From assembly GCA_013388735.1 (NCBI GenBank), contig JACAES010000062.1, forward strand, positions 5,525 through 69,524: DNA of 64,000 nt, in the 5' to 3' direction. The position numbers and the translations under genes were made by a program. Below are positions 18,872 through 52,526 of the stretch, one piece after another; position 1 is the stretch's first letter, and each line of letters begins with the position of its first letter. A model generated the notes under the pieces. That model did not search any database. It worked only from the letters and a program-made list of their open reading frames with translations, and had not been told where the DNA came from. The stretch comes from Chloroflexota bacterium. GTDB taxonomy: Bacteria > Chloroflexota > Anaerolineae > Aggregatilineales > Phototrophicaceae.

Positions 18872-19900
18872 ATGACTGACCAACCGGATAAGCAGTTCAA
18901 CAAACCAACATCCCCAGCAGACAAAGCTGAACAGCCGGATACAAAGCCGGCTGTGGATAAAAAACCGGACGAAGCCGCCACCGGCGCGGCGCAGGCCGGC
19001 AAACCGCCTGAAGCAGCGCAAACGTCCGCCGAAGCTGCGGAGAAAAAACAGCCCGCCAACGGCGGCGAACCGGCGCGCCCGCCGGCTGCGTCAGCGCCCA
19101 GGACTGAAAGTCCCGCCCTGCAAGCAAAAAAGCCGGACGCCGACAAAAACGAGGCGAAGCCTGCCGGGAACGACGCGAAACCGGTCGAAAAAACCGACGC
19201 GAAACCGGCTGCCGACCAGGCCGAACCCGCGCCCCAGACCGAAAAGTCGGCCGGCAAACCGCCTGCCGAGGAAACCGCTGCCGGTATTTCGACCGCGCCG
19301 GTCACTGATGCGCTGGCAGCCCCGGCCAAACCGGCGGCCTCTGCCGGGATCATCTGCCCCAGTTGCAGCCATCGCAACCGCCCCGGCCTGCTGCTGTGTG
19401 AAAACTGTGGCACGAACCTGATGACCGGCAAGCAGACTCAGGTCGGCACACGCGACCTGAAACGCGAACAGGAAACCGCCGACCAGGAAGGCGCGCGCCT
19501 GCTGGATACCGGCCAGACCAAAGCGATTGAGAGCGCGGGCGGCAGCGCCTTCACCGAAAACATGGTGCTGCGCGTGGAAATCGAAGGCGCGGCCATGCCG
19601 ATGCTGGTTTATCCCAAAGCTGAAATTATCCTGGGACGGCGCGACCCAAACACCGGCGCGATGCCTGACGTGGATTTAACGGCCTATGCCGGCTACCGCA
19701 TGGGCGTCAGCCGCCGCCATGCCGCCATTCGTTTCCAGGATCGGCAGCTTAACCTGTCCGACCTGGGCAGCAGCAATGGCACATTCCTGAACGGCACGCG
19801 CCTGAACGCGCACCGGCCTTACCAACTGCGCGACGGCGACGAAATTCGCCTGGGGCAAATGGTCTTACGCTTGTTCTTTCAGGCTTCCGGTCGCAAATAG
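18872..19900 (+). CDS. FHA domain protein with double zinc ribbon and low-complexity N-terminus
   Basis: CPSC..CENC; LGRRD, GVSRRHA and DLGSSNGTFLNG FHA motifs. Confidence 0.9.
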   Translation: MTDQPDKQFNKPTSPADKAEQPDTKPAVDKKPDEAATGAAQAGKPPEAAQTSAEAAEKKQPANGGEPARPPAASAPRTESPALQAKKPDADKNEAKPAGNDAKPVEKTDAKPAADQAEPAPQTEKSAGKPPAEETAAGISTAPVTDALAAPAKPAASAGIICPSCSHRNRPGLLLCENCGTNLMTGKQTQVGTRDLKREQETADQEGARLLDTGQTKAIESAGGSAFTENMVLRVEIEGAAMPMLVYPKAEIILGRRDPNTGAMPDVDLTAYAGYRMGVSRRHAAIRFQDRQLNLSDLGSSNGTFLNGTRLNAHRPYQLRDGDEIRLGQMVLRLFFQASGRK

Positions 19901-36788: not shown

Positions 36789-36872
36789 GCCGATGTGGTG
36801 GAATGGCTTACACGATCGCCTCAAAAGCGATTGGGCTTCACGCCCATGTGGGTTCGACTCCCACCATCGGCA
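36789..36872 (+). tRNA. tRNA-Leu (anticodon CAA), CCA not encoded
   Basis: acceptor GCCGATG/CATCGGC plus A73, anticodon arm ATCGC-CTCAAAA-GCGAT, long variable arm TGGGC-TTCAC-GCCCA, T arm GTGGG-TTCGACT-CCCAC. Confidence 0.95.
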
Positions 36873-37219: not shown

Positions 37220-37253
37220 TATAATAAAACGGTTGACCGAAAGCAAGCGAAAG
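37220..37253 (+). promoter_or_regulatory. -10 box plus DeoR-type tandem operator (CGAAAG-N4-CGAAAG)
   Basis: TATAAT at 37220-37225; repeats at 37238-37243 and 37248-37253, with the same geometry as the site at 41862-41895. Confidence 0.6.
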
Positions 37254-37266
37254 AGAACAAATCATC

Positions 37267-37938
37267 ATGGATCAATCCGTAAATAACATGCGCGCCCGCA
37301 TCGCTCAATTGGGGGCGTGGCTGTATGACCGCCACCTGACCGACGCCGCCGGGGGTAACATCAGCGCCCTGGTGGGCGACAAGGTGTGCATCACGCCGCG
37401 TTACAGCGGCAGCAAACGCCAGTGGCAGCTTACGCCGGACGATGTGCTGGTGACCGACCTGGAGATGAACGTCCTCGAAGGCGCGGGGCAGATTTCCCGC
37501 GAGGCCAAAGCGCACTTCAGCCTGTACAAAGCTTTCGGCCACGTCGGCACCAGTGTCATCCACGCCCACCCGCGCAACCTGCTGGTGTTCGCCGCTCTTT
37601 CTCAACCCATGCCGCCGGTGCTGGAAGCCACCCGCAAATTCGGTATGACGCCGGTAGTAGGTTACGCCCCGGCGCACAGCAAAACGTTGGCCGATAACAT
37701 CGTCGAGTCGGTGCGCGGGCGGGAAGAACGCATCAAAGTGCAGGCCGTCGGCACGATTGCGCCCTGGCACGGCCTGTTCGTGATGGGCAAAGACCTGGAC
37801 GCGGCTTTCGACGCGGTGGAACGTTTCGACACCAACGCTTATATCATCCTGATGGCGCGGCTGATGGGCGGCGCTGAAGCCCTCGAAGCACAGCGCCAGT
37901 TGATGGACACGACCATCGCCAACTTCAAAGAAGCCTGA
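37267..37938 (+). CDS. class II aldolase/adducin family protein
   Basis: GGNIS, SRE..AH, IHAHP and WHG; all three Zn-ligand histidines present. Confidence 0.88.
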   Translation: MDQSVNNMRARIAQLGAWLYDRHLTDAAGGNISALVGDKVCITPRYSGSKRQWQLTPDDVLVTDLEMNVLEGAGQISREAKAHFSLYKAFGHVGTSVIHAHPRNLLVFAALSQPMPPVLEATRKFGMTPVVGYAPAHSKTLADNIVESVRGREERIKVQAVGTIAPWHGLFVMGKDLDAAFDAVERFDTNAYIILMARLMGGAEALEAQRQLMDTTIANFKEA

Positions 37939-37940
37939 GC

Positions 37941-38876
37941 ATGATCGTCACCGTCACCGCCAATACCACCCTGGACTACACGCTGTTCGTGCCGCAGTTC
38001 GAGATGAACCGCACCATGCGCGCCACCGGCACGACCTACAGCATGGGCGGCAAACCGACCGACGCCTCGTGGATTCTGGGCGAGATCGGCATCCCCAGCT
38101 TGGCGCTGGGTTTCGCCGCCGGACACAGCGGCGCGCGCGCCAAAGCCATGTTAGAGGCGCGCGGCGTCACCACCGATTTTATCGAAGTCGGCGGGGAAAC
38201 GCGCATCAATGTCGTCATCATCTCGGAAGACAACAAGGGACATTCCACCATCACCACCTCGTCGCTGGAAATTGAGGAGCAGCACATCAACGCCCTGCGC
38301 GAAAAATTCCTGGCGGCGCTGGACGGCGCTTCCTGCGTCATCCTCGGCGGCACCCTGCCGCGTATGATGCGGCCTGAGTTTTATACCGAGTTCGTGGCGC
38401 TGGGGCGCGAACGCGGCCTGCCGGTGATCTTCGACGCCGACGAGCCGAACCTGAGCGCGGGGCTGCAATCCCGGCCGGCCTATATCAAACCCAACCGCGA
38501 CGAACTTTCCCGGCTGACCGGCCAACCGGTGCAGTCGGTGGACGACGCCTACCGGGCCGGGCGGGACATCTTCGAGCGCACCGGCGTCTGCCCGATTATC
38601 ACCCTGGGCGGCGACGGCGCGCTGGCGGTGCTGCCCGACCGCGCCTACCGCATCCCGCCGCTGGCGGTGGATGTCGTCAGCCCGGCGGGGGCCGGTGACG
38701 CGGTGCTGGCCGGGCTGGCCGCGTCCATCGAGCGCGGACAGCCGATTGAGGAAGGGCTGCGGCTGGGCGTCGCCGCCGCGACCGCCGTCTGTCTGATGCC
38801 CGGCACGGCAGACTGCCGCCGGGCGGACGTGGAGCGTTTTCTGCCATTGGTGGAGCTGCTGCCCTATCCAGGGTAA
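37941..38876 (+). CDS. 1-phosphofructokinase/tagatose-6-phosphate kinase family (PfkB) kinase
   Basis: VTVTANTTLD, GGK, GETRINV, IKPNRDEL, TLGGDGA and AGAGDA motifs. Confidence 0.9.
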   Translation: MIVTVTANTTLDYTLFVPQFEMNRTMRATGTTYSMGGKPTDASWILGEIGIPSLALGFAAGHSGARAKAMLEARGVTTDFIEVGGETRINVVIISEDNKGHSTITTSSLEIEEQHINALREKFLAALDGASCVILGGTLPRMMRPEFYTEFVALGRERGLPVIFDADEPNLSAGLQSRPAYIKPNRDELSRLTGQPVQSVDDAYRAGRDIFERTGVCPIITLGGDGALAVLPDRAYRIPPLAVDVVSPAGAGDAVLAGLAASIERGQPIEEGLRLGVAAATAVCLMPGTADCRRADVERFLPLVELLPYPG

Positions 38877-38881
38877 TCATC

Positions 38882-38960
38882 AACACAGAGGCTCAAAGGC
38901 ACAGAGGCCCAAAGCACTTGCTCTGTGTCTCTGCGCCTCTGAGTCTTCGTGTTATGCTTT
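38882..38960 (+). repeat. CACAGAG/CTCTGTG palindromic repeat, copy 1
   Basis: shares AACACAGAGGCTC, TTGCTCTGTG, GCCTCTGAG and GTGTTAYGCTTT with the copy at 39632. Confidence 0.8.
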
Positions 38961-38973
38961 TATACAATCAGGG

Positions 38974-39648
38974 ATGAAAAACATGCCGATTGAAGCGGTG
39001 ATTTTTGACATGGACGGCGTGCTGGTGGACAGCGAACCCTACTGGCTGGCATCGCGCGAGGAGTTCGCCCGCGACCTGGGCAAAGAATGGACGGACGCCG
39101 ACCAGCGGCTGGCGATGGGACGCAACACGATTGAATGGGCGCAGGTGATGCGCGAGCGCCTAAACCTCGACTGGCCGGTCGAAACCGTGATGGCCGACGT
39201 GATCCGCCGGGTGAAACTGCACTACGATGAGCGAATGCCGCTGCGTCCTGGCGCGCTGGAAGCCGCGCATCTGGCGGCGAAACACTTCCGCGTGGCGCTG
39301 GCCTCAGGGTCGCCCACCGAAATCATCAACCATGTGCTGCGGTTAACCGGCCTCGATCAGATTTTCGAGACGGTCGTTTATGGCGACGACATGCCCAACG
39401 GCAAACCCGCGCCGGACATCTACCTGGAGACGCTGCGGCGGCTGGGCGTTCCCGCCGAACGCGCTGCCGGCATCGAGGACTCCGGCAACGGCATCCGGTC
39501 GCTGCACAATGCCGGCATGTGGATTATCGCCGCGCCCAGCCCGGACTTCCCACTCGCGCCGGAAGTGGCGGCGCTGGCGCACCGGCAGATCACCTCGTTG
39601 GAAGATTTTTCGGTGGAGCTGGTACAAAACATAACACAGAGGCTCTAA
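38974..39648 (+). CDS. HAD superfamily sugar-phosphate phosphatase
   Basis: FDMDGVLVDSE, ASGS, GKPAPDIY and IEDSGNG motifs. Confidence 0.9.
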   Translation: MKNMPIEAVIFDMDGVLVDSEPYWLASREEFARDLGKEWTDADQRLAMGRNTIEWAQVMRERLNLDWPVETVMADVIRRVKLHYDERMPLRPGALEAAHLAAKHFRVALASGSPTEIINHVLRLTGLDQIFETVVYGDDMPNGKPAPDIYLETLRRLGVPAERAAGIEDSGNGIRSLHNAGMWIIAAPSPDFPLAPEVAALAHRQITSLEDFSVELVQNITQRL

Positions 39649-39713: not shown

Positions 39714-40928
39714 CTACCCGATTGCGCCGCCGGTCGTCGTGGCGAGTCCGCGTTCGTCGGCCACTTTTTGGGCATAACCATCGGCGCGGTAGGCCGCGAT
39801 AGGATCAAGCGGCAGTCCTTTTTCCTCGCGCACCTGCATCAGCAGCGGGCGCACGTCGGTCTGAAAGGCATCTACCAGCACGCCATGCGCGCCCAGCACG
39901 TCCCCGGCCAGCTGGCGCTCGCGCAGCGTTTTAAAGTCCACGATCAGGGCTTTGGCATAGGCCGTCTGGCAGTTCAGCACGCTCACCAGCATAGCCTCCA
40001 GCTTCGGCTCGATGTTGTGACTCTGGTCAATCATGTAGGCCACGTCGCGCGCGGCGTCACCCGCCGCCACCAGTTCGACGTAAATTTCAAACAGTTCAAA
40101 CGGGTTGTTCGTCCCGACGATCAGATCGTCATCGGCATAACGGCGCGCATTGAGGTGGAAGCCGCCCAGCCGCCCCTCGTCCAGCAAGAAGGCCACGATA
40201 TGGGCGATATTCGTCCCCTGGGCATGGTGGCCGGTATCCACCAGCACATGCGCCTGCGGGCCGAGTTTAAGCGCGGTGGCATAGGCCATGCCCCAGTCGG
40301 CCAGGTCGGTATGGTAAAAAGCCGGTTCGAAGAATTTGTATTCGATCAACATGCGCGACCCGGCGGGTAAATGCGGGTACACCTGCCGGAGCGCGTCCTC
40401 CATGCGGTGCTTGCGCTCGCGGATGCTGTCCTGCCCGGCATAGTTGGTGCCGTCGGCGAACCACAGACTGAGCAGGCCGCTGTTCACCTTATCCATAATC
40501 TCGCAGCATTCGACCATGTGGGCGATGGCTTCCTCGCGCACGCTGGCGGACGGGTGCGTGATGCTGCCCAGTTTGTACTGGTCGTCCTGGAACAGGTTCG
40601 GGTTGACCGCGCCGATTTTGATGCCCCGATCTGCCGCGTACTGCTGCATGGCATCGTAATCATCCACTTTGTCCCAGGGGATATGAATGGCGATGGAGGG
40701 GGCGATGCCGGATAGTTTGTGAATGTAAGCGGCGTCGTCTATCCGCTCCCAGGTGTTGCGCGCCGCGCCCGGCCAGGCGAAAACCTTAAAGCGCGTGCCG
40801 CCGTTGCCGTATCCCCAGGACGGCGTTTCGATGTGCTGCTCTTTCAGTTTCGCTTTTACCGCCTCGACATCCACGTTCTGCTGCGCCAGGCGTTCGGCCA
40901 GACGCGCGTAGTCGGCCTTAAAATCCAT
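39714..40928 (-). CDS. rhaI: L-rhamnose isomerase (RhaI/RhaA' type)
   Basis: [47 protein letters not shown] and IDQSH motifs. Confidence 0.92.
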
Positions 40929-40977
40929 GAAAACTTTATCCTTTGCTGAAAAATCAGTACAATAGAGGCAAGTTTTG

Positions 40978-41021
40978 GTTTCATTATCCTTCAGTTTATG
41001 TCTAAGCGAAAGTGATGTCAA
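40978..41021 (-). promoter_or_regulatory. rhaI promoter with DeoR-type repeats
   Basis: minus strand TTGACA-N17-TAAACT (41021-40993), overlapped and followed by TGAAGG-N4-TGAAAC; CGAAAG also on the plus strand at 41007. Confidence 0.6.
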
Positions 41022-41023
41022 GC

Positions 41024-41809
41024 ATGACGGAGCCACTGTTCCTCGAAGAACGACGGCGCAGCATCCTGGAACTGCTGAAGCAGCATGGGCGCGTGTCGGT
41101 CAACGCGCTCAGCGAAAAACTCAATGTCAGCACGGTGACAATCCGCCAGGATTTGCGGGCGCTGGAAGAAGAAGGCCTGCTGGAACGCACCTACGGCGGC
41201 GCGGTGCTGCGTTCGTCGCCGCCCCCGGTGGCGGAGCTCTCGTTTGAAACGCGGCGGGAAAAATACCGCGCCGAAAAAGACGCCATCGGCCAGGCGGCGG
41301 CGGCGCTGGTGCAGGACGGTTTTGGCATCGCGCTGGATGCCAGTTCGACCGCCTACGCCATCACGCCCTACCTCAAACGTTTCGACAGCCTGACGGTCGT
41401 CACCAACAGCCTGATCGTCGCCCAGCAGTTTTTGCACACGCCGCGCATCCGGGTGCTGCTGCCCGCCGGACGGCTGCGGCGCGACTCGATTTCGGTGGTC
41501 GGCAACGCTGCCAGCCTGCCGGACATCAATCTGAACATCGGCTTTTTCGGGGCGCGCGGCCTGTCGCCGGAAGCCGGCGCGACCGAGATCAGCCAGGAAG
41601 AAGCCGAGATGAAACGCGCCATCATCGCGCGCTGCATTGCGACGGTGCTGGTGGTGGACGGCAGTAAATGGGGGCAGGTCGCGCCTTATACCTTCATAGA
41701 CGCGAACGACATCACCCGCATCATCACCAGCGACAACGCCCCCCTGGAGGCGTTCGCGCCGTTTCAGGCCAGGGGCGCGACCGTAGATATGGTGAGTGTG
41801 GCAGAATAG
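41024..41809 (+). CDS. rhaR: DeoR/GlpR family transcriptional regulator (putative rhamnose repressor)
   Basis: [15 protein letters not shown]...VTIRQDL..L..RTYGGA; EKDAIG, LDASST and VVTNS. Confidence 0.88.
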
Positions 41810-41838: not shown

Positions 41839-41895
41839 TTGACAAAGCTCTGGCGACGCGATATAAATTAGATAGACAATGAAAGAAAACGAAAC
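41839..41895 (+). promoter_or_regulatory. rha operon promoter with tandem operator
   Basis: TTGACA-N17-TATAAA (41839-41867) followed by TGAAAG-N4-CGAAAC (41880-41895). Confidence 0.7.
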
Positions 41896-41962: not shown

Positions 41963-43942
41963 ATGCCGCAGAACTTATGGGACCCCCAAGAGGCCAACCA
42001 CCTGCTCAACCTGGACGGGTTAGTATACCGAAGCAGGTTGTCCGGTCGTGATAATGCCAGCCTCTACCGCTTTGAGGGCAGCACCAGCGCCAGGCTCAAC
42101 CGCACCGATCATATGGGGCGTGATACCCGCCTGCTGGCGGTGAAGGCTTGCGGCCCGGAGCAAACGGCCATCACCGAAAGCGATTTTGCGCTGCTGCGCC
42201 TGGACGAAATCGAGCCGCTGTTCGAGCGCGAAACGATGACCGACGCCGAAGTGGTCGTCTATCTGTCGCGCACGGTCTTCGAACCCGGACGCCCGCGCCC
42301 CGGCCTTGAAACGCTGCTGCACGCCTTCATCCCCCATCCGCACATTGACTACACCCGCCCGGACGCAATCCTCAGTCTGGCCTGCGCCCCGGACGCCGAA
42401 CGGCTGGTGAGCGCCGTCTATGGAACGCGGCTGGCTTTCGTGCCGTACCAACGTCCCGGTTTCGCTCTCGGCCAACTGGTCGGGCGGCTGATGCGGCAAA
42501 ACCCATCGCTCGAAGGTTTCATCCTAGGCAAAAACGGCCTGCTGACCTGGGGCGATGATGCCAGAACGTGTTACGAAAAAACCATCGCCATCATTCAGGA
42601 AGCCGAAACTTACGTCCAGGCGCGGCGCGGCGGTATACAGGTTTTCGGCGCGCCGCGCTTCCCGGCCATCAGCGCCGCCGAACGGCAGGAAATCCTAACA
42701 CAAACGCTGCCGGTCTTGCGGGGCGCGCTGTCCGGCGGCAGCGGCGTCATCCTGAGTTATGACGACAGCGAAGCGGCGCTGGAACTGGCGAGCGGCGCAG
42801 CAGCCGCGACGATCGGCCGGCAGGGCGCGCCCTGCCCCGAATATGCAAAACATCTCCGACGCCTGCCGCTGTGCGTGGACTGGAAACCGGCGGACGGCCT
42901 GCCGGCGCTGCATCAGAAACTGCGCGACGGCCTCAGCGACCCCGCGCCGCGTATCGTCATCATCCCCGGTCTGGGGCTGGTGTGCGCCGGGACGGATGCC
43001 CGCAGCGCCGATCAAAATTGCCGGCTTTTCCGACAGACGATTAACATCATGGGCGGCAGCCTAGCGCTGGGCGGCTTCGAGGGGCTGACCGAAACAGAAG
43101 CTCTCGACCTGGAGCACGAAACGCGGCCCACCCCGACCGGCGAACTGGAAGGCCGGGTGGCGCTGATTACCGGCGGCACCAGCGGCATCGGCCAGGCCGC
43201 CGCCTACCGGCTGGCGCAGGACGGCGCGCATGTCGTCATCCTGGGCCGCAGCCGCGAGCGGGGCGAAGCCATCGCCGCCGACATCAACCGGCGGCACGGC
43301 CACCGCCGCGCCCTGATGATCGAGGCCGATATGCGCGACGAAGCGGCGGTCGAAGCGGCTTTCCGGCAGACGGTTTTAACCTGCGGCGGCCTGGACATCC
43401 TGGTGAACAACGCCGGCAGCGCTGGCGGCGCGCCGGTCGAAGATACCACGCTGGAGATGTGGCAGCACAATCTGGACGTTCTCGCCACCGGCTACTTTTT
43501 AGCCGCGCGCGCCGCCTTCCGGGTGATGAAAGCGCAGGGGACGGGCGGGGCGATGGTGTTCGTCGCCAGCAAAAACAGCATTGCGGCCGGCAAGGGCGCA
43601 GCTGCCTACAGCGCAGCCAAAGCTGCCGAAGTGCATCTGGCGCGCTGCCTGGCGGAAGAAGGCGGCGCTTACGGCATCCGCGTCAATTCGGTGCTGCCGG
43701 ACGCGGTGATTCGCGGCAGCGGCATCTGGGACAGTGCCTGGAAGGAAGCCCGCGCCAGACAGTATGGCATCGCGGTAGATGACCTGTACGAGTTTTACCG
43801 CAAGCGCAACACACTCAAGGTGGAAATTCTGCCGGAGGACATCGCCGAAGCGATTGTTTTTCTGGCCGGGCCGCGCAGCGCCAAAACGACGGCGGCCATA
43901 TTGACGGTAGATGGTGGTGTGCCAACTGCCTACGTGCGGTAA
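41963..43942 (+). CDS. RhaEW-type aldolase/short-chain dehydrogenase fusion with a degenerate aldolase domain
   Basis: N-domain follows the RhaE pattern (NLWD, LVYRS, ETLLHAF) but lacks the metal histidines; SDR domain TGGTSGIG, NNAG, SKNS, YSAAK and VNSVLPDAV intact. Confidence 0.88.
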   Translation: MPQNLWDPQEANHLLNLDGLVYRSRLSGRDNASLYRFEGSTSARLNRTDHMGRDTRLLAVKACGPEQTAITESDFALLRLDEIEPLFERETMTDAEVVVYLSRTVFEPGRPRPGLETLLHAFIPHPHIDYTRPDAILSLACAPDAERLVSAVYGTRLAFVPYQRPGFALGQLVGRLMRQNPSLEGFILGKNGLLTWGDDARTCYEKTIAIIQEAETYVQARRGGIQVFGAPRFPAISAAERQEILTQTLPVLRGALSGGSGVILSYDDSEAALELASGAAAATIGRQGAPCPEYAKHLRRLPLCVDWKPADGLPALHQKLRDGLSDPAPRIVIIPGLGLVCAGTDARSADQNCRLFRQTINIMGGSLALGGFEGLTETEALDLEHETRPTPTGELEGRVALITGGTSGIGQAAAYRLAQDGAHVVILGRSRERGEAIAADINRRHGHRRALMIEADMRDEAAVEAAFRQTVLTCGGLDILVNNAGSAGGAPVEDTTLEMWQHNLDVLATGYFLAARAAFRVMKAQGTGGAMVFVASKNSIAAGKGAAAYSAAKAAEVHLARCLAEEGGAYGIRVNSVLPDAVIRGSGIWDSAWKEARARQYGIAVDDLYEFYRKRNTLKVEILPEDIAEAIVFLAGPRSAKTTAAILTVDGGVPTAYVR

Positions 43943-43992: not shown

Positions 43993-45432
43993 ATGGCTTC
44001 AAAACATGTTATCGCGGTTGATATGGGCGCAGAGTCCGGGCGGGTGATGCGGGTCAGCCTGGACGGCGACCGCCTGAACATTGAAGAAATTCACCGTTTT
44101 CCCAGCGTGTCCGTCACCGTTCACGGCACGCTGTACTGGGACGTGCTGCGCATGTGGCACGAAATTACCACCGGCATCCGAATGGCCGCCCCCGGCGCGG
44201 CTTCAATTGGCGTGGATACCTGGGGCGTGGACTTCGGCCTGCTCGACCGCGACGGCAATCTGCTGGCGAATCCGGTTCATTACCGGGATAACCGCACCGA
44301 CGGCATGATGGACTGGGTGTTCGAGCGCGTGCCGCGCCGTGAAGTATTCGAGCGCACCGGGATTCAGTTCCTTCAGCTCAACACACTCTACCAGATCGCC
44401 AGCCTGGTGAAAGCCAAAAGCCCGGTGCTGGAAAACGCCGCCTATTTCCTGATCCTGCCTGACCTGTTCAATTACTGGTTGAGCGGCGTCAAAGCCAGCG
44501 AGTTCACCATCGCCACCACCACCCAGTTCTATAGCCCGCACAGCGGCGGCTGGGATACCGACCTGCTGGCGAAAATCGGCGCGCCCACCCACATCCTGCC
44601 GGAGATTGTGCCATCGGGGACGAAACTGGGTGAATACAACGGCATCCCGGTCATCGCCCCGGCCTGCCACGATACCGGCAGCGCCGTCGCCGCCGTGCCG
44701 ACCACCACCACCAACTACGCCTATCTCAGCAGCGGCACCTGGAGCCTGCTGGGGCTGGAGCTGGACAGGCCGGTCATCAACGACGCCGCCTACGCGGCCA
44801 ACGTCACCAACGAAGGCGGGGTGGGCGGCAAGTTCCGTTTCCTGCGCAATATCACCGGCTTATGGCTGATCCAGCAGAGCCGCCAGGTATGGCAGGAACA
44901 AACCGGCAAACTGTACGAACACGCCGAACTGGCCGAACTGGCGCAGGCCGCCGCGCCGTTCCGGTCGCTGTTCGACCCCGATCATAAGGATTTCCTGACC
45001 CCCGGCGACATGCCCGCCCGCCTGCGCGCCCTGTGCCAGCGCACCGGCGAGCCGCAGCCGGAAACGCCGGGTCAGACCGCGCGGGCGATTTACGAAAGCC
45101 TGGCGTTTAAATATCGCTATTATCTCGAAAAGCTGGCGGACGTTTCCGGCCAGCGCGTAGACCGGCTGCACATCATCGGCGGCGGTTCGCGCAATGTTCT
45201 GTTGTGCCAGATGGTCGCCAACGCCATCGGTCGCCCGGTAGTGGCCGGGCCGGCGGAGGCGACTGCCCTGGGTAACGCGCTGGTGCAGTTTATCGCCCTG
45301 GGCGAATTCGCCGACCTGGCGCAGGCGCGCGAGCTGCTGAGCCGCAGCGCCGAAACCACCACCTACGAACCTGTCGCTACCGCCGACTGGGACGCACAGT
45401 ACGCGCGTTTCCAATCGCTGCTGGTTGAGTGA
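43993..45432 (+). CDS. rhaB: rhamnulokinase
   Basis: AVDMGAESGR, IGVDTWGVDFGL, PVHYRD, HDTGSAV, LSSGTWSLLG, TNEGG and GGGSRN motifs. Confidence 0.93.
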   Translation: MASKHVIAVDMGAESGRVMRVSLDGDRLNIEEIHRFPSVSVTVHGTLYWDVLRMWHEITTGIRMAAPGAASIGVDTWGVDFGLLDRDGNLLANPVHYRDNRTDGMMDWVFERVPRREVFERTGIQFLQLNTLYQIASLVKAKSPVLENAAYFLILPDLFNYWLSGVKASEFTIATTTQFYSPHSGGWDTDLLAKIGAPTHILPEIVPSGTKLGEYNGIPVIAPACHDTGSAVAAVPTTTTNYAYLSSGTWSLLGLELDRPVINDAAYAANVTNEGGVGGKFRFLRNITGLWLIQQSRQVWQEQTGKLYEHAELAELAQAAAPFRSLFDPDHKDFLTPGDMPARLRALCQRTGEPQPETPGQTARAIYESLAFKYRYYLEKLADVSGQRVDRLHIIGGGSRNVLLCQMVANAIGRPVVAGPAEATALGNALVQFIALGEFADLAQARELLSRSAETTTYEPVATADWDAQYARFQSLLVE

Positions 45433-45458: not shown

Positions 45459-46682
45459 ATGGCGCTGCGTTTGCGATGGCCGACCCAATATCCGCTGATC
45501 CGGCAGCCGTTCGGCGTTAACTGGACGGGCGACCCGGACTTTTACGCCCGCGCCGGTCTGTCCGGCCACGAAGGACTGGACATCGAAGCGCCGGAAGGCA
45601 GCGAAGTGTACGCCTGCGCCGATGGCGTGGTGTCGCGCATTTCGCTGGACGGCGATAACAGCCCGGACGAAAAACCCTACGGCAATCAGATTCGTATCAC
45701 GCACCCCGCCGAAGGCGACGACGCCCCATACACCACCACTTACGGCCACTTGCAGCGCGTGCGGGACGGCCTGCAGGTCGGCAGCCGCGTGCTGGCCGGG
45801 GAACTGATCGCTTATGCCGGCAGCACCGGCAGGTCGCACGGCGGCGGCCATTTACATCTGATGCTCAAAAAGCGCGGCGCCAGCGCCTCCGGCGAAACGC
45901 CCTTCCCCAAAGACATCATAGACCCGACGCCGTTTCTGGAGCCGCTGGTCTTCAGCGCCCAGTTTACGACCGGCGGCAGACCAGGCACTCCTGCACCCGC
46001 GCCTGCGCCCACCCCGCCCCGGCTGGGGCCACCGCCCCTGCCGAAAGCCTTTAACGGGCGCTACCGCCTTCAGTCCAACGAGGCGCAGTTCCGCGCGCGC
46101 TGGGGTTGGGTTTCGCTGGTGGAGGGTAAACGCTACCTGAACGTGATCGCCACCGCCAACGCGCCGTACAGCAGCCCGCAGCAGCGCAAGGACGCCCACA
46201 GCGTCTTGCTGATCGAAAACGCCATTAGTTACCTGAACCCGAAGGACGAACCCAACGGCACGCCGCGCTACTGGCCGTTCAGGGGACAGTCTTACTTCTG
46301 CAATATTTTCGTCGGCGACGTAACCCGCCTGCTGCACTGCGAAGTCCCCAATAACCCGGCCATGACCACCGTCGGGCAGGTATTGAACTGGCTGCAAACG
46401 TCCGGCCCGGCGGCGGGCTGGCGGCGCGCCAAAGACGGCAAGGAAGCGCAGGACTGGGCCAACACCGGGCGCGTGGCGGTTATGCTGTGGCAGCAGGGTA
46501 AAACCAGCGACCATTCGGCACTGGTGAGGCCGGGCAAAGGTTTTGTGGATTCGAAAGGTTTCTTCTGGCCGCGCGTGGCGCAGGCCGGCGCCGTCGTCAC
46601 CGGCGATGGCGATTCTTACGTGACGTTTCGCGGCAGTTCAGATAAGCCGCGCGACCGGATATTCTGGTTTTTACACGATTAG
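45459..46682 (+). CDS. M23 metallopeptidase fused by a Pro-rich linker to a CHAP-like Cys/His domain
   Basis: HEGLD (HxxxD), YGHL and HLH for M23; PAPAPAPTPP linker; FCNIFV..DHSALVRP..AQAG in the C-domain; no signal peptide visible. Confidence 0.8.
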   Translation: MALRLRWPTQYPLIRQPFGVNWTGDPDFYARAGLSGHEGLDIEAPEGSEVYACADGVVSRISLDGDNSPDEKPYGNQIRITHPAEGDDAPYTTTYGHLQRVRDGLQVGSRVLAGELIAYAGSTGRSHGGGHLHLMLKKRGASASGETPFPKDIIDPTPFLEPLVFSAQFTTGGRPGTPAPAPAPTPPRLGPPPLPKAFNGRYRLQSNEAQFRARWGWVSLVEGKRYLNVIATANAPYSSPQQRKDAHSVLLIENAISYLNPKDEPNGTPRYWPFRGQSYFCNIFVGDVTRLLHCEVPNNPAMTTVGQVLNWLQTSGPAAGWRRAKDGKEAQDWANTGRVAVMLWQQGKTSDHSALVRPGKGFVDSKGFFWPRVAQAGAVVTGDGDSYVTFRGSSDKPRDRIFWFLHD

Positions 46683-46749: not shown

Positions 46750-48306
46750 ATGGGCGCAACTCTTGAACTTGAAGGCATCAACAAGCAGTTCCCCGGCGTG
46801 AAGGCACTCGACAACGTGCGCTTTGATATGGCGGCGGGTGAAGTCCACGCCCTGCTGGGCGAAAACGGCGCGGGTAAATCCACGCTGATTAAAATCATCT
46901 CCGGCGTTTACAGACCGGACGGCGGCACGATCCGGTTGGACGGCGAAACGGTGCTGTTCAACACCCCGCGCGAGGCACAGCAGCGCGGCATTGCCACCAT
47001 CTACCAGGAACTCAGCCTGTACCCGGAACTGACGGTGGCGGAAAACATCTTCATGGGACACGCCCCACGCCGCAAGGTCGGGCCGGTGGACGTGCTGGAC
47101 TGGAAAGCCGCCAATACCAAAGCCCAGGAAATCCTGACCTCGCTGCATATCCACACCCTGGATGTGCGGCGCAAGGTAGGCACCCTGACGGTCGGCAACC
47201 GGCAGCGCGTGGAGATCGCCAAGGCGCTGTCGCTGAATGCGCGCATCCTCATCATGGACGAACCGACTGCCGCCCTGACCGAGGCCGACGTGGAGCAGTT
47301 GTTCAGCATTGTGCGGCTGCTGCGGGAGCGCGGCGTGGGCATCATCTACATCAGCCACCGTTTGCACGAAGTTTTTGAACTGGCCGACCGCGTGACCGTG
47401 CTGCGCGACGGGCAGTATGTCGGCACCAAGCTGGTCAGCGAAACCAGCGAAAACGACCTGGTAAGCATGATGGTCGGGCGCACGATTGACAACCTGTTCC
47501 CCAAGCTGGATACCGAAATCGGCAAACCGGTGCTGGAAGTCCGCAACCTGTACCGCCGACCGATGACACGCGGCGTCAGCTTCCAGCTTCGCGCCGGGGA
47601 AATCGTCGGCCTGGCCGGGCTGGTCGGCGCCGGCCGCAGCGAAGTGGCACAGGTGATCTTCGGCATCAACCCGGCGGAAAGCGGCGAAATCCTGATTGAC
47701 GGCCAGCCGGTGACGATCAAACACCCCGGCCAGGCCATGAATCACGGCATCGCCTACGTGCCGGAAGATCGCGGCACACAGGGATTGGTGCGGCAGATGC
47801 GCATCCGCGAGAACGTTTCGATGTCGGTGCTGCGGGCCATCCGCGCCGGCATATTCATCAACCGGCGCGAGGAGCGCAGCCTGGCGACCGGCATGATTAA
47901 ACAGCTTAACATCCGCGCCTACAGCGCCGAGCAGGTGGTCAACAAACTCTCCGGCGGCAACCAGCAGAAGGTCGTGGTCGGCAAATGGCTGGCGAGCAAA
48001 CCGCGCATCCTGATTATGGACGAGCCGACGCGCGGCATTGACGTGGGCGCAAAAGCAGAGATTCACCGCCTGATGAGCGAACTGGCAAAGGAAGGGCTGG
48101 CGGTGCTGATGATTTCCAGCGAACTGCCGGAAATCCTGGGCATGAGCGACCGCATCCTGGTGATGCGCGGCGGGCAGGTGGTGGCGGAATATTCGCGCGC
48201 GGAAGCCACCCAGGAACGCATCGCCGCCGCCATGATGAGTGAAACCGCCGGAAATGGCGCGCCGGAGTCGGAAACCGTAATGATAGATGAAAGCGAAACA
48301 GCATGA
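46750..48306 (+). CDS. sugar ABC transporter ATP-binding protein (RhaT-like)
   Basis: GENGAGKSTL, two NBDs, LSGGNQQK and DEPTRGIDVGAK. Confidence 0.93.
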   Translation: MGATLELEGINKQFPGVKALDNVRFDMAAGEVHALLGENGAGKSTLIKIISGVYRPDGGTIRLDGETVLFNTPREAQQRGIATIYQELSLYPELTVAENIFMGHAPRRKVGPVDVLDWKAANTKAQEILTSLHIHTLDVRRKVGTLTVGNRQRVEIAKALSLNARILIMDEPTAALTEADVEQLFSIVRLLRERGVGIIYISHRLHEVFELADRVTVLRDGQYVGTKLVSETSENDLVSMMVGRTIDNLFPKLDTEIGKPVLEVRNLYRRPMTRGVSFQLRAGEIVGLAGLVGAGRSEVAQVIFGINPAESGEILIDGQPVTIKHPGQAMNHGIAYVPEDRGTQGLVRQMRIRENVSMSVLRAIRAGIFINRREERSLATGMIKQLNIRAYSAEQVVNKLSGGNQQKVVVGKWLASKPRILIMDEPTRGIDVGAKAEIHRLMSELAKEGLAVLMISSELPEILGMSDRILVMRGGQVVAEYSRAEATQERIAAAMMSETAGNGAPESETVMIDESETA

Positions 48307-49310
48307 CAGCAACAACCGTTTCAGCCGCCCGGCAGTCCTCCCCAGGCTGGCTCAAAAACCTTCGGACGCTGGTCAGCGGGCAGGAAGGCGCGCTGACGCT
48401 GAGCCTGGTGCTGCTGGTGATCGTGGTCGGCACGGCCAACCCACGCTTCCTGGCCCAGCAGAACATCTCCGATATTCTGCTCAACAGTTCGTATATCGCC
48501 GTCGCCGCCATCGGCATGAGCGCGGTCATCATCTCCGGCAACATTGATATTTCGGTCGGCGCGATGATCGGCGTGCTGGCGACCATCAGCGGGCAGCTTT
48601 CCATCGTGCCGGGGATGCCGATATGGATTTCGTGGCTCGTGCCGCTGATCGTCGGCCCGCTGATCGGCGCAGTGACGGGTTTTCTGGTGGCGTATTTGCG
48701 CATCCCCTCTATCGTGGTTTCGCTGGGTATGATGAGCATCCTCAAGGGCGGCCTGATTCTGGCGACCGGCGGGGTGTGGATTTACAACATGCCGCCGGAA
48801 TATAAGCTGGCGCAGCAAAGTTTCCTCGGCCTGCCCGTGCCGGTCTATTTTATGCTCGTACTGACCATCCTGGCGGCGCTGTGGATGCGTTATTCCCCCT
48901 CCGGGCGCGCCATTTACGCCGTCGGCGGCAACAAAGAGGCCGCCCTGCTCTCCGGCATTTCGTCGCGCACAGTGCTGATGCGGGTGTTTATGTTCAACGG
49001 CCTGATGGTCGGCATCTCCAGCGTGCTGTTTGCCACCCAGTTCAGTTCGATTCAATCCACCGTTCCAAACGGGCTGGAACTGACCATCATCACGTCGGCG
49101 GTTGTCGGGGGTGTTAGCATCCTGGGCGGCACGGGTACGGTCATCGGCGCAACGCTGGCGACCATCCTGCTGCGGGCCATCGGCAACGGCATGATTTTTA
49201 TTAACGTTTCGGCCTACTGGCTGCAAGCGGTACAAGGCACGCTCATCCTGGTGACGGTGCTGATTGACCTGCTGCGCCGGCGCCGCCAGGCCGCGCAAAT
49301 TCGAGGGTAA
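48303..49310 (+). CDS. sugar ABC transporter permease (RhaP-like)
   Basis: IDISVG, IPSIVVSLG, GRAIYAVGGN and ELTIITSAVVGGVSILGG. Confidence 0.92.
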   Translation: MTATTVSAARQSSPGWLKNLRTLVSGQEGALTLSLVLLVIVVGTANPRFLAQQNISDILLNSSYIAVAAIGMSAVIISGNIDISVGAMIGVLATISGQLSIVPGMPIWISWLVPLIVGPLIGAVTGFLVAYLRIPSIVVSLGMMSILKGGLILATGGVWIYNMPPEYKLAQQSFLGLPVPVYFMLVLTILAALWMRYSPSGRAIYAVGGNKEAALLSGISSRTVLMRVFMFNGLMVGISSVLFATQFSSIQSTVPNGLELTIITSAVVGGVSILGGTGTVIGATLATILLRAIGNGMIFINVSAYWLQAVQGTLILVTVLIDLLRRRRQAAQIRG

Positions 49311-49315
49311 ACATC

Positions 49316-50320
49316 ATGGCAGTCACCGAAAGATCATCGCAACTGACCAAACAGTCCAACCCCATCGTCAGCCGTTTGCGGGCCGTTGTGTTGAGTAAAG
49401 AAGGCATCCTGTTTCTGATTATGATTGCGGCGATGTTTATTCTGTCGCTGCTGACCGACAAGTTCCTGACCACCAACAACCTGCTCAACCAGCTTCGTCT
49501 GGTGACGGAAATCGGGCTGATGGCGCTGCCGATGACCTTTATCATCATCACCGGCGGCATTGACCTGTCGGTCGGCTCGATCTTCGGCCTCAGCGCCATC
49601 GTCATGGGCTTCCTCTGGCAGGATTCCGGCTGGCCGCTGGAGCTTGCCATCATCATGTGTATAGTGGTAGGGACGATAGCCGGATTCATAAACGGCCTGT
49701 TTATCGTCCGGGTGGGCGTGCCGCCGCTCATCATGACGCTGGCGACACTGGCGCTGTACCGGGGCATGGCGCTGGGCGTCAGCGAGGCGCGTTCCGCGCG
49801 CGGTTTCCCGGACTGGTTTTTTGACCTGGGGCAACGGCAGTTCCTCGGCATCCCATCGCAGCTATGGATTTTGCTGATCGCGGCCATCATGGTCGGCATC
49901 ATACTGGCGCGGACGCCCTTCGGGCGCGGCATCTATGCCATGGGCAACAACGAACTGGCTGCGCGTTTTTCCGGCATTCCGGTCAGGCTGTACAAACTCG
50001 TCATTTATACCTTTTCGGGTTTTATGGCCGGGCTGGCGGGTTATATCTTCACCTCGCGCATCAGCACCACGCGCGCGGACATGGGTACAGGGCTGGAACT
50101 GGACGTGATCGCCGCCGTCGTGCTGGGAGGAACGAGCATCAACGGCGGCAGCGGCAGCATCGTCGGCACGATGATCGGCCTGATCCTGATTCAACTTCTC
50201 AAAAACGGGCTGCTGTTGGGCGGGGTCAAGGGCGACGCGACCATCGTCATCATCGGCGCGATTCTGATTCTGGCGATCCTCATCAACAACCTGGTGCAGC
50301 GCCGCACCGGCGGGGACTAA
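49316..50320 (+). CDS. sugar ABC transporter permease (RhaQ-like)
   Basis: GGIDLSVGS, VPPLIMTL, GRGIYAMGNN and ELDVIAAVVLGG. Confidence 0.92.
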   Translation: MAVTERSSQLTKQSNPIVSRLRAVVLSKEGILFLIMIAAMFILSLLTDKFLTTNNLLNQLRLVTEIGLMALPMTFIIITGGIDLSVGSIFGLSAIVMGFLWQDSGWPLELAIIMCIVVGTIAGFINGLFIVRVGVPPLIMTLATLALYRGMALGVSEARSARGFPDWFFDLGQRQFLGIPSQLWILLIAAIMVGIILARTPFGRGIYAMGNNELAARFSGIPVRLYKLVIYTFSGFMAGLAGYIFTSRISTTRADMGTGLELDVIAAVVLGGTSINGGSGSIVGTMIGLILIQLLKNGLLLGGVKGDATIVIIGAILILAILINNLVQRRTGGD

Positions 50321-50466
50321 GGCGGCGGCAGACAGGGGCGCAGACGCCACGCCTGCTTGCCAAAACCTGGGAAATGAGGTAAGCTAAGTACTGACTTTTG
50401 GAAATAGCATGGTAATTTTTCCATGTTATTCTACTTAGTGTATCAAAAAGTTAAGGAGGATTCCGT

Positions 50467-51672
50467 ATGTCTAAGAAAGTGTTTGCAGCCGTTTTAATGG
50501 TCGCCCTGGTGCTGTCGGTGGCGCTCGTGCCTGCCGTCGCGCAGGATGAGGAGCGGTGGGTCGGCGCGGATGACCTGCCGGTTTCGCCGCTGGAATGTCC
50601 TGAGGACGCTCCTGGCGCGGCGATGACGGAAGAACCGATGGAAGAGCCGGAAATGGCGGCGCTGGAATACAACGGCGGTCAACCCGTTAATGCGCCCGAC
50701 CTGGCCGGCCAGGAAATCGTCCTGGTGGATGTGCCGAAGCTGATCGGCATCGGTTACTTCAACGCCACGTCGCTGGGTATGCAGCAGGCTGCCGAAGAAC
50801 TGGGCAATGTCAAGGTGACGACCGACGGCCCGACCCAGGGTGACATCGTGCAGCAGGTGGCCTTCATCGAGCAGTACATCACTCAGGGCGTGAACGGCAT
50901 TCTGTTCGCCGCCAACGACCCGGTGGGCATTTCGCCCGTGCTGCGCCGCGCGCTGGAATCCGGCATTCACGTGGTTGGTTATGATGCCAACAGCGAGCCG
51001 GACGCCCGCGAGTGGTTCGTGAACCAGGCCGAGTTTAACGGCATCGCCAAAGCCAAGATTGACAGCATGGTGGCGGAAATCGGGCCGGAAGGTTCGTTCG
51101 CCATCGTCACCAGCTCCTTCACCGCCCCCAACCAGTCGCGCTGGATTTCGGAAATGTGGGCCTACGCCCAGAAATGCTACCCCGATCTGAAGTGGCTGGA
51201 GACGGTTGAGTCGGCTGAAGATCAGAACCTGGCCTTCCAGCAGACCCAGACGCTGCTGAACAAATACGGCCCCGACATGGACGGCGTCTTCGGTATGTCG
51301 AGTGTGGCGTTCCCCGGCGCGGCTGACGCAGTAGCGCAGGCCGGCCTGTGTTCGCCCGATGACGCCGCCGCCGATGTGGCCGCGCCCGATGAAGAATCGG
51401 CTGTCGCCATCGTCGGCCTCAGCACCCCCAACCAGATGCGCCCGTTTGTCGAGAACGGCTGCGTCGAGTCGGTCGTGCTGTGGAACCCGGTTGACCTGGG
51501 TTATGCCGCCGTGTACGTGATGCGCGCGGTCGTGGACGGCACGCTGACGCCCGAATCGACCGAGGTCGAGGCGGGACGTCTGGGTACGCTGCAAGTTGTC
51601 AACGGCAGCGAAATCCTGCTTGGGCCGCCCTTCGTCTATACGCAGGATAACATCGCAGACTTCGACTTTTAG
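50467..51672 (+). CDS. sugar ABC transporter substrate-binding protein (RhaS/LsrB family)
   Basis: signal peptide; PKLIGIGYF, DGPT, NQSRW, VGLSTPNQMRPFV and LWNP. Confidence 0.9.
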   Translation: MSKKVFAAVLMVALVLSVALVPAVAQDEERWVGADDLPVSPLECPEDAPGAAMTEEPMEEPEMAALEYNGGQPVNAPDLAGQEIVLVDVPKLIGIGYFNATSLGMQQAAEELGNVKVTTDGPTQGDIVQQVAFIEQYITQGVNGILFAANDPVGISPVLRRALESGIHVVGYDANSEPDAREWFVNQAEFNGIAKAKIDSMVAEIGPEGSFAIVTSSFTAPNQSRWISEMWAYAQKCYPDLKWLETVESAEDQNLAFQQTQTLLNKYGPDMDGVFGMSSVAFPGAADAVAQAGLCSPDDAAADVAAPDEESAVAIVGLSTPNQMRPFVENGCVESVVLWNPVDLGYAAVYVMRAVVDGTLTPESTEVEAGRLGTLQVVNGSEILLGPPFVYTQDNIADFDF

Positions 51673-51767: not shown

Positions 51768-52526
51768 ATGAGCGAAGCACCTACCCCACTGGTTGAACTC
51801 ACCCGCACCCTCGGCCAGCCACACCTCGATTATGTGATTATCGGCGAGGGCAACACCTCCTGCCGCGCCGACGATGAGTCGTTCTGGGTCAAAGCCAGCG
51901 GCCAGCAGATGCACAACATCTCGCCGGCTGGATTCGTGCAGGTGCGCTTCGATCCCATCCTCGCCATGCTGGATAAATCGCCCGGCGACCTGGCCGCGCA
52001 GAAAGCCGTCATGCAGGCAGCCAAAGTAGACCCGTCCGTGACCTTGCAGCCCTCGGTGGAAGTGAGCTTCCATGCCATGCTGCTGCGCGAGTGCGGCGTC
52101 TCGTACATCGGCCACACCCATGCGATGGCCGTCAACCGGATTATGTGCAGCCCGCGCGCGGCAGACTTTGCCAGCAAGCGTATGTTCCCCGATGAAGCCG
52201 TATTATGCGGCCCGGAATCGGTCTTTCTGCCCTATGTAGACCCCGGCCTGCCGCTGGCAGTGGCGATGCGCCAGCAGGTGCGCGCCTATCTGGACACATG
52301 GGGCGACGCGCCAAAGGTCATCCTGATGGCGAATCATGGGGTGATCGCCCTGGGGCAGACGCCCACCGAAGTTCTGAACGTCATGGCGATGTGCGTCAAA
52401 GCCGCGCACATCTTCATCGGCGCGTGTGTCGCCGGCGGGCCGGTCTTCATGGAGCCGTCCGAAGTGCTGCACATCTGCCGCAGACCGGACGAAATCTACC
52501 GGCGGCAGCAGTTCGTCGCGCGTTAA
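51768..52526 (+). CDS. class II aldolase, candidate L-rhamnulose-1-phosphate aldolase
   Basis: GEGNTS, VKASG, PSVEVSFH, GHTH and NHG all intact; last gene of the rha operon. Confidence 0.82.
   Translation: MSEAPTPLVELTRTLGQPHLDYVIIGEGNTSCRADDESFWVKASGQQMHNISPAGFVQVRFDPILAMLDKSPGDLAAQKAVMQAAKVDPSVTLQPSVEVSFHAMLLRECGVSYIGHTHAMAVNRIMCSPRAADFASKRMFPDEAVLCGPESVFLPYVDPGLPLAVAMRQQVRAYLDTWGDAPKVILMANHGVIALGQTPTEVLNVMAMCVKAAHIFIGACVAGGPVFMEPSEVLHICRRPDEIYRRQQFVAR

Follow-up and report, generated by a model that had tools for sequence, protein, structure and literature searches.

Within a 64,000-nucleotide stretch of a Chloroflexota genome assembly (contig JACAES010000062.1; hereafter the window), the open reading frame (ORF) at 41963-43942 on the forward strand encodes a 659-amino-acid (aa) fusion of a class II aldolase and a short-chain dehydrogenase/reductase (SDR) of the RhaEW type. 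We propose, with a probability of about 0.62, that this protein is a RhaEW descendant in which only the RhaW half works, the RhaE module being vestigial and translated, the aldolase step being supplied in trans and the SDR half being predicted to use NADP(H). According to this scenario, the aldolase module (the N-terminal domain plus the linker) would have lost its metal ligands, its phosphate site and its C-terminal tail in the common ancestor of a small Anaerolineae clade, and would since then have persisted as a translated N-terminal appendage under strongly relaxed, still present constraint. The reading frame would be retained, as ribosomes must read through the module to make the SDR, and the residual constraint probably reflects folding, solubility or oligomer packing. 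Rhamnulose-1-phosphate would be cleaved in trans by the aldolase encoded at 51768-52526 in the same operon, as the gene context suggests, and the SDR half would still handle L-lactaldehyde, with NADP(H) instead of NAD+ if the cofactor rule discussed below applies, while the fusion gene would stay in the rhamnose regulon.

A RhaEW-type fusion protein

The protein has the architecture expected of RhaEW, an N-terminal Aldolase_II domain followed by a C-terminal classical SDR in a chain of about 660-700 aa. A Pfam scan returned a weak Aldolase_II match (PF00596, residues 38-217, 45 bits) and a strong adh_short match (PF00106, residues 398-582, 157 bits). The score of 639 bits against NCBIfam model TIGR02632 (RhaD_aldol-ADH), whose cut-off is 568, places it in the RhaEW family; the top NCBIfam model, NF006190, gave 801 bits, below its cut-off of 1014, and the match was split in two. 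With RhaEW/YuxG (Rodionova 2013, PMC3870299; TIGR02632) it shares the two-domain architecture and length class, 55-63% identity to the intact Chloroflexota members, the place in a rhaI / deoR-rhaEW-rhaB-ABC locus, and a RhaR-type operator; within the SDR, the catalytic motifs and the C-terminal part beyond them are conserved as well. Unlike them, it has none of the three Zn histidines, has lost residues of the phosphate site and is without two linker segments that are otherwise invariant, and its clade differs in that the N-terminal and middle regions evolve about 10 times faster and an NAD-type Asp is replaced by Gly-Arg. The protein can be divided as follows.

41963-42631, forward strand: degenerate RhaE (class II aldolase) domain, residues 1-223, delimited by Pfam, homolog alignment and dN/dS (the ratio of non-synonymous to synonymous substitution rates)
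42632-43138, forward strand: degenerate middle region (linker), residues 224-392, marked by two deletions, conserved-position changes and dN/dS
43139-43942, forward strand: conserved SDR (RhaW) domain, residues 393-659 plus stop, supported by the adh_short match of 157 bits and dN/dS

Loss of the aldolase active site

A first-pass annotation of this DNA, made from the letters alone, had listed changed motifs in the aldolase half (FEGSTS from 42071, KACG at residues 61-64, HIDYTRPD at 42341-42364 and KNG at 42530-42538) together with SDR motifs in the C-terminal half, and all of them are present where it had placed them. It had also claimed that all three Zn histidines are lost, a claim on which the homolog alignment and the mapping onto FucA agree. 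Our homolog set consisted of the 120 best database matches, 117 of which are intact proteins of about 687 aa (667-735). At the three Zn-ligand positions, all 117 close intact relatives have histidine, and the window protein has Y130 (42350-42352), R132 (42356-42358) and N191 (42533-42535). G38, N40, Q113, S114, I115, H132 and H191 are retained in 117 of the 120 best homologs and H130 in 119, the only deviants being the window protein and its nearest relatives, P0002 and P0003. The loss of H130 concerns the window protein alone, the sister lineages having lost two of the three ligands (132 and 191). A profile alignment to solved FucA structures (4c24) equates E116 with E73, H130 and H132 with H92 and H94, and H191 with H155. 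This mapping was obtained by searching PDB sequences with a profile of the RhaE domain and its stand-alone relatives, and hhalign against the single E. coli FucA sequence gave a probability of 0.2%. Three Zn histidines are conserved in all RhaE (Rodionova 2013, PMC3870299), and none of those equivalent to H141, H143 and H212 of RhaD is left in the window protein. The loss of Zn-ligand positions is far beyond chance.

The phosphate site carries the changes G38E, N40S, S63C and S114G, at positions kept in 117-119 of the other 119 best homologs, so that the phosphate loop GGNTS reads EGSTS (42074-42088) and the phosphate-site serine motif QSIE reads PGLE. The phosphate-binding Gly-Asn, the KASG motif and the Ser preceding the catalytic Glu are therefore missing, and G64 and E116 remain; H120, H127, D129 and K190 are likewise still present.

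Two in-frame deletions shared by the whole clade remove segments that are invariant in intact proteins, one of 21 aa after residue 325 (nt 42937/42938) and one of 8 aa (WPLELYKL) after residue 385 (nt 43117/43118). Both invariant linker segments of RhaEW (Y..Y.YF...GD and WPLELYKL) are thereby absent, and a profile-profile comparison showed that WPLELYKL corresponds to the invariant RPDEIYRR tail of stand-alone aldolases. Taken together, the aldolase domain of the window protein is, as far as sequence can tell, almost certainly catalytically dead, because Zn ligands, phosphate-site residues and conserved tail are all lost. The first-pass annotation had noted neither the two deletions nor the lost serine motif of the phosphate site, nor that changes extend across all of the N-terminal 392 residues, nor the altered cofactor site of the SDR half.

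As a separate observation, the middle region of RhaEW, in which Pfam recognises no domain, has at its end another copy, a degenerate one, of the C-terminal third of the class II aldolase fold. The homology spans about residues 316-416 of intact relatives (P0004 numbering) and 42900-43140 of the window (hhalign E=3.3e-5), and the P-x-E-[IL]-Y tail is conserved both at the end of this region and in stand-alone aldolases. This aldolase-like element is apparently previously undescribed.

A Foldseek comparison of the full-length model with the PDB returned SDR matches only, and no solved full-length RhaEW. The closest PDB relative of the N-domain is the stand-alone protein 3m4r (E=1e-31), which has H-S-H and KHG where the window protein has Y-T-R and KNG. 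AlphaFold predicted similar folds for the window protein and the intact P0004, with a mean predicted local distance difference test (pLDDT) score of 85.7 and 89.4, respectively; in the former an aldolase fold is predicted with pLDDT mostly >80, weaker at residues 24-37, 65-67 and 384-391, in a model whose underlying alignment is dominated by intact relatives and which is weak evidence for that reason.

Relaxed constraint and continuing erosion

P0002 and P0003 are 79% and 80% identical to the window protein, and the next match is at 60%. A cluster look-up gave ten distinct sequence variants in three lineages, from hot-spring, anammox and wastewater Anaerolineae: P0002 and P0003 come from Anaerolineae metagenome-assembled genomes (AMX57; CFX8 and others), and hot-spring metagenome runs contain the sequence of the window itself. 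When JGI metagenome contigs were scanned with the N-terminal plus middle region, no additional clade members turned up. The loss of aldolase residues is shared by a clade and is more than an accident peculiar to a single genome.

Of the positions on which at least 97% of the 117 intact relatives agree, the window protein has altered 30 of 105 (N-domain), 37 of 73 (middle region) and 12 of 101 (SDR); the intact relatives themselves average fewer than one change per region. With so many conserved positions changed, and with catalytic sites that vary between strains, the "several targeted substitutions" of the first-pass annotation do not describe the domain. Pairwise Nei-Gojobori counts among the window, L001 and L004, set beside an intact control pair of similar dS (L006/L032, dS 0.26), gave these dN/dS values:

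Fusion gene, whole length: 0.27-0.33
Fusion gene, N-domain: 0.26-0.42 (intact control pair, 0.028)
Fusion gene, middle region: 0.42-0.49 (intact control pair, 0.15)
Fusion gene, N-domain plus middle region: 0.34-0.44 (bootstrap confidence interval 0.23-0.58)
Fusion gene, SDR half: 0.11-0.14 (intact control pair, 0.048)
Twelve neighbour genes (91-99% aa identity): 0.02-0.17
Twelve neighbour genes, pooled: 0.05-0.11

The value for the N-terminal plus middle region exceeds that of the SDR half 3-4 times (bootstrap P<=0.006) and that of the intact N-domain about 10 times. The comparison of control pair and clade thus indicates that the aldolase domain, the most constrained part of the intact enzymes, has been relaxed about 10-fold in the clade, and the dN/dS check proposed for the N-domain came out as neither neutral nor fully constrained.

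Erosion can also be followed between close strains. Within the 90% cluster of P0002, 28 of 392 columns are variable in the N-terminal plus middle region against 2 of 267 in the SDR (Fisher p=3.5e-5), with E116K, G64R, R110C, G39S and D144G among the variants. Substitutes differ across the clade (R, Y or C at position 132, Y or H at 130, E, D or a deletion at 38), and further in-frame deletions have occurred, of 1 aa in the GGNTS loop of P0003, P0247 and P0242 (two lineages) and of 3 aa in P0003. The aldolase module is under relaxed constraint with continuing erosion and is not a redesigned site.

The stop-free frame across the N-terminal plus middle region is nonetheless under selection, because 237 random substitutions, the observed divergence between the window and L001 in this region, produced at least one stop in 99.6% of neutral simulations, and because no indel in the clade shifts the frame. 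This is most simply explained by the position of the SDR farther along the same ORF. The absence of frameshifts, which had been taken as a sign of N-domain function, loses its force here, as a frameshift or stop would also destroy the SDR, and in-frame deletions do occur. An internal start yielding an SDR-only protein was considered and rejected: there is no conserved internal Met (M363 is found in the window only), and the upstream frame is stop-free against neutral expectation.

Cofactor site of the SDR half

The SDR half had been called intact, and this stands for its catalytic motifs: TGGTSGIG, NNAG and YSAAK are present, S536, Y549 and K553 are present and invariant, and the C-terminal part is nearly unchanged from about residue 576 (LPDAV...). 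It does not stand for the cofactor site, where the NAD-determining Asp after strand beta2 has become Gly-Arg clade-wide. Fourteen SDR positions on which 90% or more of the intact relatives agree have changed in one or several clade members, and five of these changes (A406T, D428G, I429R, N430S/R and T458R) cluster on the adenosine side of the cofactor site. After beta2, Asp-Ile-Asn is replaced in the window by Gly-Arg-Ser (G428-R429-S430, 43244-43252); D428G, I429R and N430S/R are fixed in the clade, and D, I and N are found in 117, 116 and 115 of the 117 intact relatives, respectively. The Asp at the end of beta2 is also present in all other full-length family representatives checked.

In SDRs, NAD(H) is specified by an acidic residue at the end of beta2 and NADP(H) by a basic one in the loop that comes next (Kavanagh 2008, PMC2792337). 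The window protein has no Asp ending beta2 and has, at the sequence level, the NADP(H)-type arrangement of no Asp or Glu followed by Arg or Lys. The nearest PDB matches to the cofactor segment of an intact relative are NAD+ enzymes (3-hydroxybutyrate, butanediol and 15-hydroxyprostaglandin dehydrogenases), and those to the window segment are FabG (VIITGTSGERA, 2p68) and malonyl-CoA reductase (VVITGRNAEK, 8hi4). With such NADP(H)-specific classical SDRs the window segment VVILGRSRERG aligns in having no acidic residue at the end of beta2 and an adjoining basic residue, although the remainder of the domain is RhaW-like and its cofactor use is predicted. The same Gly-Arg pair after beta2 (G37-R38) is known from the NADP(H)-type R-ADH of Lactobacillus. 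Because Gly-Arg-Ser replaces Asp-Ile-Asn, a switch of the SDR half from NAD+ to NADP(H) is predicted under the SDR cofactor rule. By comparison, Ca_RhaEW uses NAD+, and its aldolase turnover was reported to be NAD+-dependent.

Candidate sources of the aldolase step

If the fused domain is dead, the best candidate for the missing activity is encoded at the end of the rha transporter operon.

51768-52526, forward strand: stand-alone RhaE-like class II aldolase, 252 aa (Aldolase_II, 70 bits)

Its only NCBIfam matches are fusion models, on their aldolase halves, and it is 26% identical to the RhaE domain. Stand-alone RhaE-like aldolases (this 252-aa family and 3m4r, listed as "uncharacterized protein") are homologous to the fused N-domain (profile E=3.6e-17) and share with RhaE the GGNTS, KASG, S-x-E, H-T-H and x-H-G motifs and the P-x-E-[IL]-Y tail; they keep every motif, whereas the window's fused domain has lost them. 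In 120 homologs of the 252-aa aldolase, GEGNTS, KASG, SVE, HTH, NHG and RPDEIYRR are invariant or nearly so. The window copy shows none of 78 conserved positions changed and a dN/dS of 0.02-0.10, and the gene's place in the operon does not change between the three dead lineages and the intact relatives.

Six other Chloroflexota loci, from Phototrophicaceae and others (L018, L019, L024, L025, L026 and L031), have a DeoR-RhaB-ABC-aldolase set and lack RhaEW within 10 kb of it; at one more locus, L023, a 252-aa-type aldolase directly adjoins rhaB. Since kinase, transporter and aldolase form a minimal catabolic module, the aldolase would cleave the kinase product, and gene context makes it the likely supplier of rhamnulose-1-phosphate cleavage. 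Its presence would make the fused RhaE domain redundant and allow its loss. A recent gain of this aldolase as the trigger was rejected, as the gene already belonged to the ancestral operon and is found alongside intact RhaEW. The 252-aa family has >3500 database matches and is labelled "RhaD (predicted bifunctional...)" by JGI; it looks like an uncharacterised type of rhamnulose-1-phosphate aldolase.

A second class II aldolase lies upstream of the rha genes, with intact H-x-H and HG motifs; it is an alternative, less likely source of the aldolase step.

37267-37938, forward strand: FucA/AraD-like class II aldolase, 223 aa, first gene of an aldolase-PfkB-HAD operon (37267-39648)

Putative promoter and operator of the fusion gene

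Two elements precede the fusion gene.

41839-41867, forward strand: promoter-like TTGACA (41839-41844), 17-nt spacer and TATAAA (41862-41867)
41880-41894, forward strand: tandem TGAAA-N5-CGAAA repeat resembling an operator of RhaR (DeoR-type), recognised by motif count and conservation

The two sister lineages keep both promoter hexamers, which can also be recognised in the intact loci L006 and L007; a consensus promoter scanner did not flag them, the -10 hexamer ending in A. The tandem GAAA motif has 3 matches in the 64 kb against 0.14 expected, and the same element lies upstream of rhaEW in dead and intact relatives. It matches the C. aurantiacus RhaR operator, a TCGAAA tandem repeat with a 10-11 bp period shown by electrophoretic mobility shift assay (PMC3870299). 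As the promoter and the RhaR-type operator are conserved, the fusion gene still looks like a member of the rhamnose regulon, with rhaI, deoR, rhaB and a rhaS-type ATP-binding cassette (ABC) transporter as flanking genes and the predicted operator upstream, as expected of a rha locus that RhaR controls. The same study includes only three metatranscriptome runs, all tiny, and none has words in common with the fusion gene.

A similar element precedes the 223-aa aldolase, and L001 and L004 share it.

37238-37252: tandem CGAAA-N5-CGAAA repeat, RhaR-like, following a TATAAT box and preceding the aldolase-PfkB-HAD operon

That operon may also belong to the rhamnose regulon, going by its upstream motif. 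Separately, a HAD homolog precedes deoR in several other Chloroflexota rha loci. The third match, at 19176, falls within an ORF and probably reflects chance.

Alternative explanations

The strongest competitor is that the N-terminal part is a pseudo-enzyme domain retained for a new job, as a scaffold of the SDR tetramer, as a dock by which the stand-alone aldolase hands over lactaldehyde, or as a metabolite sensor. A dN/dS of the N-terminal plus middle region clearly below 1, the presence of the domain in all ten variants of the three lineages, the aldolase fold still predicted by AlphaFold and the functional coupling of the two Ca_RhaEW activities speak in its favour. Yet no new conserved motif has arisen, formerly invariant positions keep changing even between near-identical strains, and in-frame deletions continue (P0003, P0247, P0242). 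The AlphaFold model leans on the alignment of intact relatives, and selection against misfolding of a translated leader could alone give a dN/dS below 1. We therefore regard this explanation as unlikely, and its sensor version in particular: the sugar-phosphate sensor suggested by the first-pass annotation is hard to reconcile with the loss of the phosphate-binding residues. The module is relaxed and eroding, and a residual structural role in folding or oligomerisation is possible at a dN/dS clearly below 1. Overall, the interpretation given in the first-pass annotation is supported in part. The adducin head domain offers a point of comparison, being a class II aldolase fold without metal ligands inside a larger protein, with a conserved, established structural role. 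PF00596 is itself named "Class II Aldolase and Adducin N-terminal domain", and beta-adducin gave a marginal match in the RhaE profile search (E=1.7). Unlike the adducin head, the window domain is still eroding, and no new role is evident.

It is highly improbable that we are dealing with a pseudogene in decay over its full length, or with an artefact of assembly or sequencing. Its score lies below the NF006190 cut-off and PGAP names one ortholog a generic SDR, but the SDR half is under purifying selection like the neighbours, promoter and operator have been preserved, independent samples and assemblies have yielded ten intact ORF variants, and no stops are present where nearly all neutral simulations give one. 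The artefact was rejected, as independent assemblies carry the same gene. Least probable of all is that the aldolase domain still works through other ligands or by metal-independent chemistry, for example with R132 replacing the metal charge, since, even with E116, H120, H127, D129 and K190 kept in the window protein, the substitutes are not conserved (including E116K in one strain), the phosphate site and C-terminal tail are lost and constraint is relaxed about 10-fold.

Several points weigh against our own proposal of a vestigial RhaE module with cleavage in trans. The sequence rule behind the NADP prediction has exceptions. The 252-aa aldolase coexists with intact RhaEW in the same operon of the closest intact relative, L006, and also in L007, L017, L020 and L030, so its native substrate may differ, rhamnulose-1-phosphate activity being predicted. 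Our survey covered contigs rather than whole genomes, and a further aldolase could lie elsewhere. The dN/dS values come from pairwise counts in three lineages with no phylogenetic model. Lastly, the value for the N-terminal plus middle region is significantly below 1 (p<=2e-7), so some selected role is possible and the word "appendage" may understate it.

Aldolase-degenerate fusions in the wider family

A sensitive search of 1.84 billion cluster representatives gave 106 full-length fusion proteins among the best 150 matches. The H-H-H set is kept in 98 of the 106, and about 10 lack the Zn histidines and phosphate motifs (P0262, P0276, P0280, P0294, P0299, P0305, P0357, P0375, P0377 and P0382). 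These degenerations look independent, because the 10 proteins are spread over different NCBIfam sub-models, in all of which they score far below cut-off. Some of them may merely stem from poor gene calling in metagenomes. The NAD-type Asp is retained in all 10, Gly-Arg being confined to the window's clade. Aldolase death may thus be recurrent in the RhaEW family, and a literature search found no paper describing an aldolase-dead RhaEW. Among these loci, P0375 adjoins a DeoC-family (class I aldolase type) gene (L035) and P0299 another SDR (L034).

A bolder version, which we offer tentatively and consider rather doubtful as a whole, would treat the aldolase loss and the Asp-to-Gly-Arg cofactor change as parts of a single rewiring: the enzyme would be uncoupled from rhamnulose-1-phosphate cleavage and turned into an NADP(H)-dependent lactaldehyde oxidoreductase, either a 1,2-propanediol-forming reductase or an NADPH-producing dehydrogenase, with the N-terminal 392 residues serving as an assembly platform only, and aldolase-dead RhaEW-like fusions would be a recurrent, unrecognised class annotated as "bifunctional aldolase/dehydrogenase".

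RhaEW is automatically annotated as bifunctional in thousands of genomes, and the clade described here shows that such a gene can stay in the rhamnose regulon after its aldolase half has died, in which case name-based pathway reconstruction would assign the aldolase step to the wrong gene. The annotations of the clade are inconsistent (P0241, the CFX8 ortholog, and P0243), ranging over "SDR family NAD(P)-dependent oxidoreductase", "putative oxidoreductase YuxG" and "rhamnulose-1-phosphate aldolase/alcohol dehydrogenase". The clade can further serve as a natural experiment on the fate of a fused-enzyme module once a paralog makes it redundant, on the structural need of RhaW for RhaE, for which the NAD+-dependent aldolase turnover of Ca_RhaEW hints at coupling, and on how a three-residue change may retune SDR cofactor use. 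The 252-aa stand-alone aldolase, widespread in Chloroflexota rha operons, is a candidate rhamnulose-1-phosphate aldolase.

Gene neighbourhood

In all three lineages the gene order is 223-aa class II aldolase, PfkB, HAD, rhaI (reverse strand), deoR, fusion gene, rhaB, M23 peptidase, rhamnose-type ABC transporter, 252-aa aldolase and pdxT. In the window, the genes not yet listed are as follows.

36789-36872: tRNA gene (Rfam RF00005, 59 bits), upstream of the 223-aa aldolase operon
39714-40928, reverse strand: L-rhamnose isomerase RhaI, 404 aa (TIGR02635, 597 bits against a cut-off of 531), start set as in relatives
41024-41809, forward strand: DeoR-family regulator, candidate RhaR by family match and synteny
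43993-45432, forward strand: rhamnulokinase RhaB (TIGR02627, 471 bits; synteny)
45459-46682: M23-family peptidase gene, between rhaB and the ABC ATPase
46750-51672, forward strand: rhamnose-type ABC transporter, comprising an ATPase, two permeases and a RhaS-like binding protein (TIGR02637 RhaS, 220 bits)

The M23 peptidase gene is present in all three aldolase-dead lineages and missing from the otherwise syntenic operons of the intact L006 and L007, and looks like a clade-specific insertion into the rha operon. The longest ORFs of rhaI (39714-41036, reverse strand, 440 aa) and deoR (41012-41809, forward strand, 265 aa) overlap head to head; the gene calls of relatives (404 and 261 aa) place the starts at 40928 and 41024, which leaves a 95-bp divergent rhaI/deoR promoter region holding one CGAAAG element.

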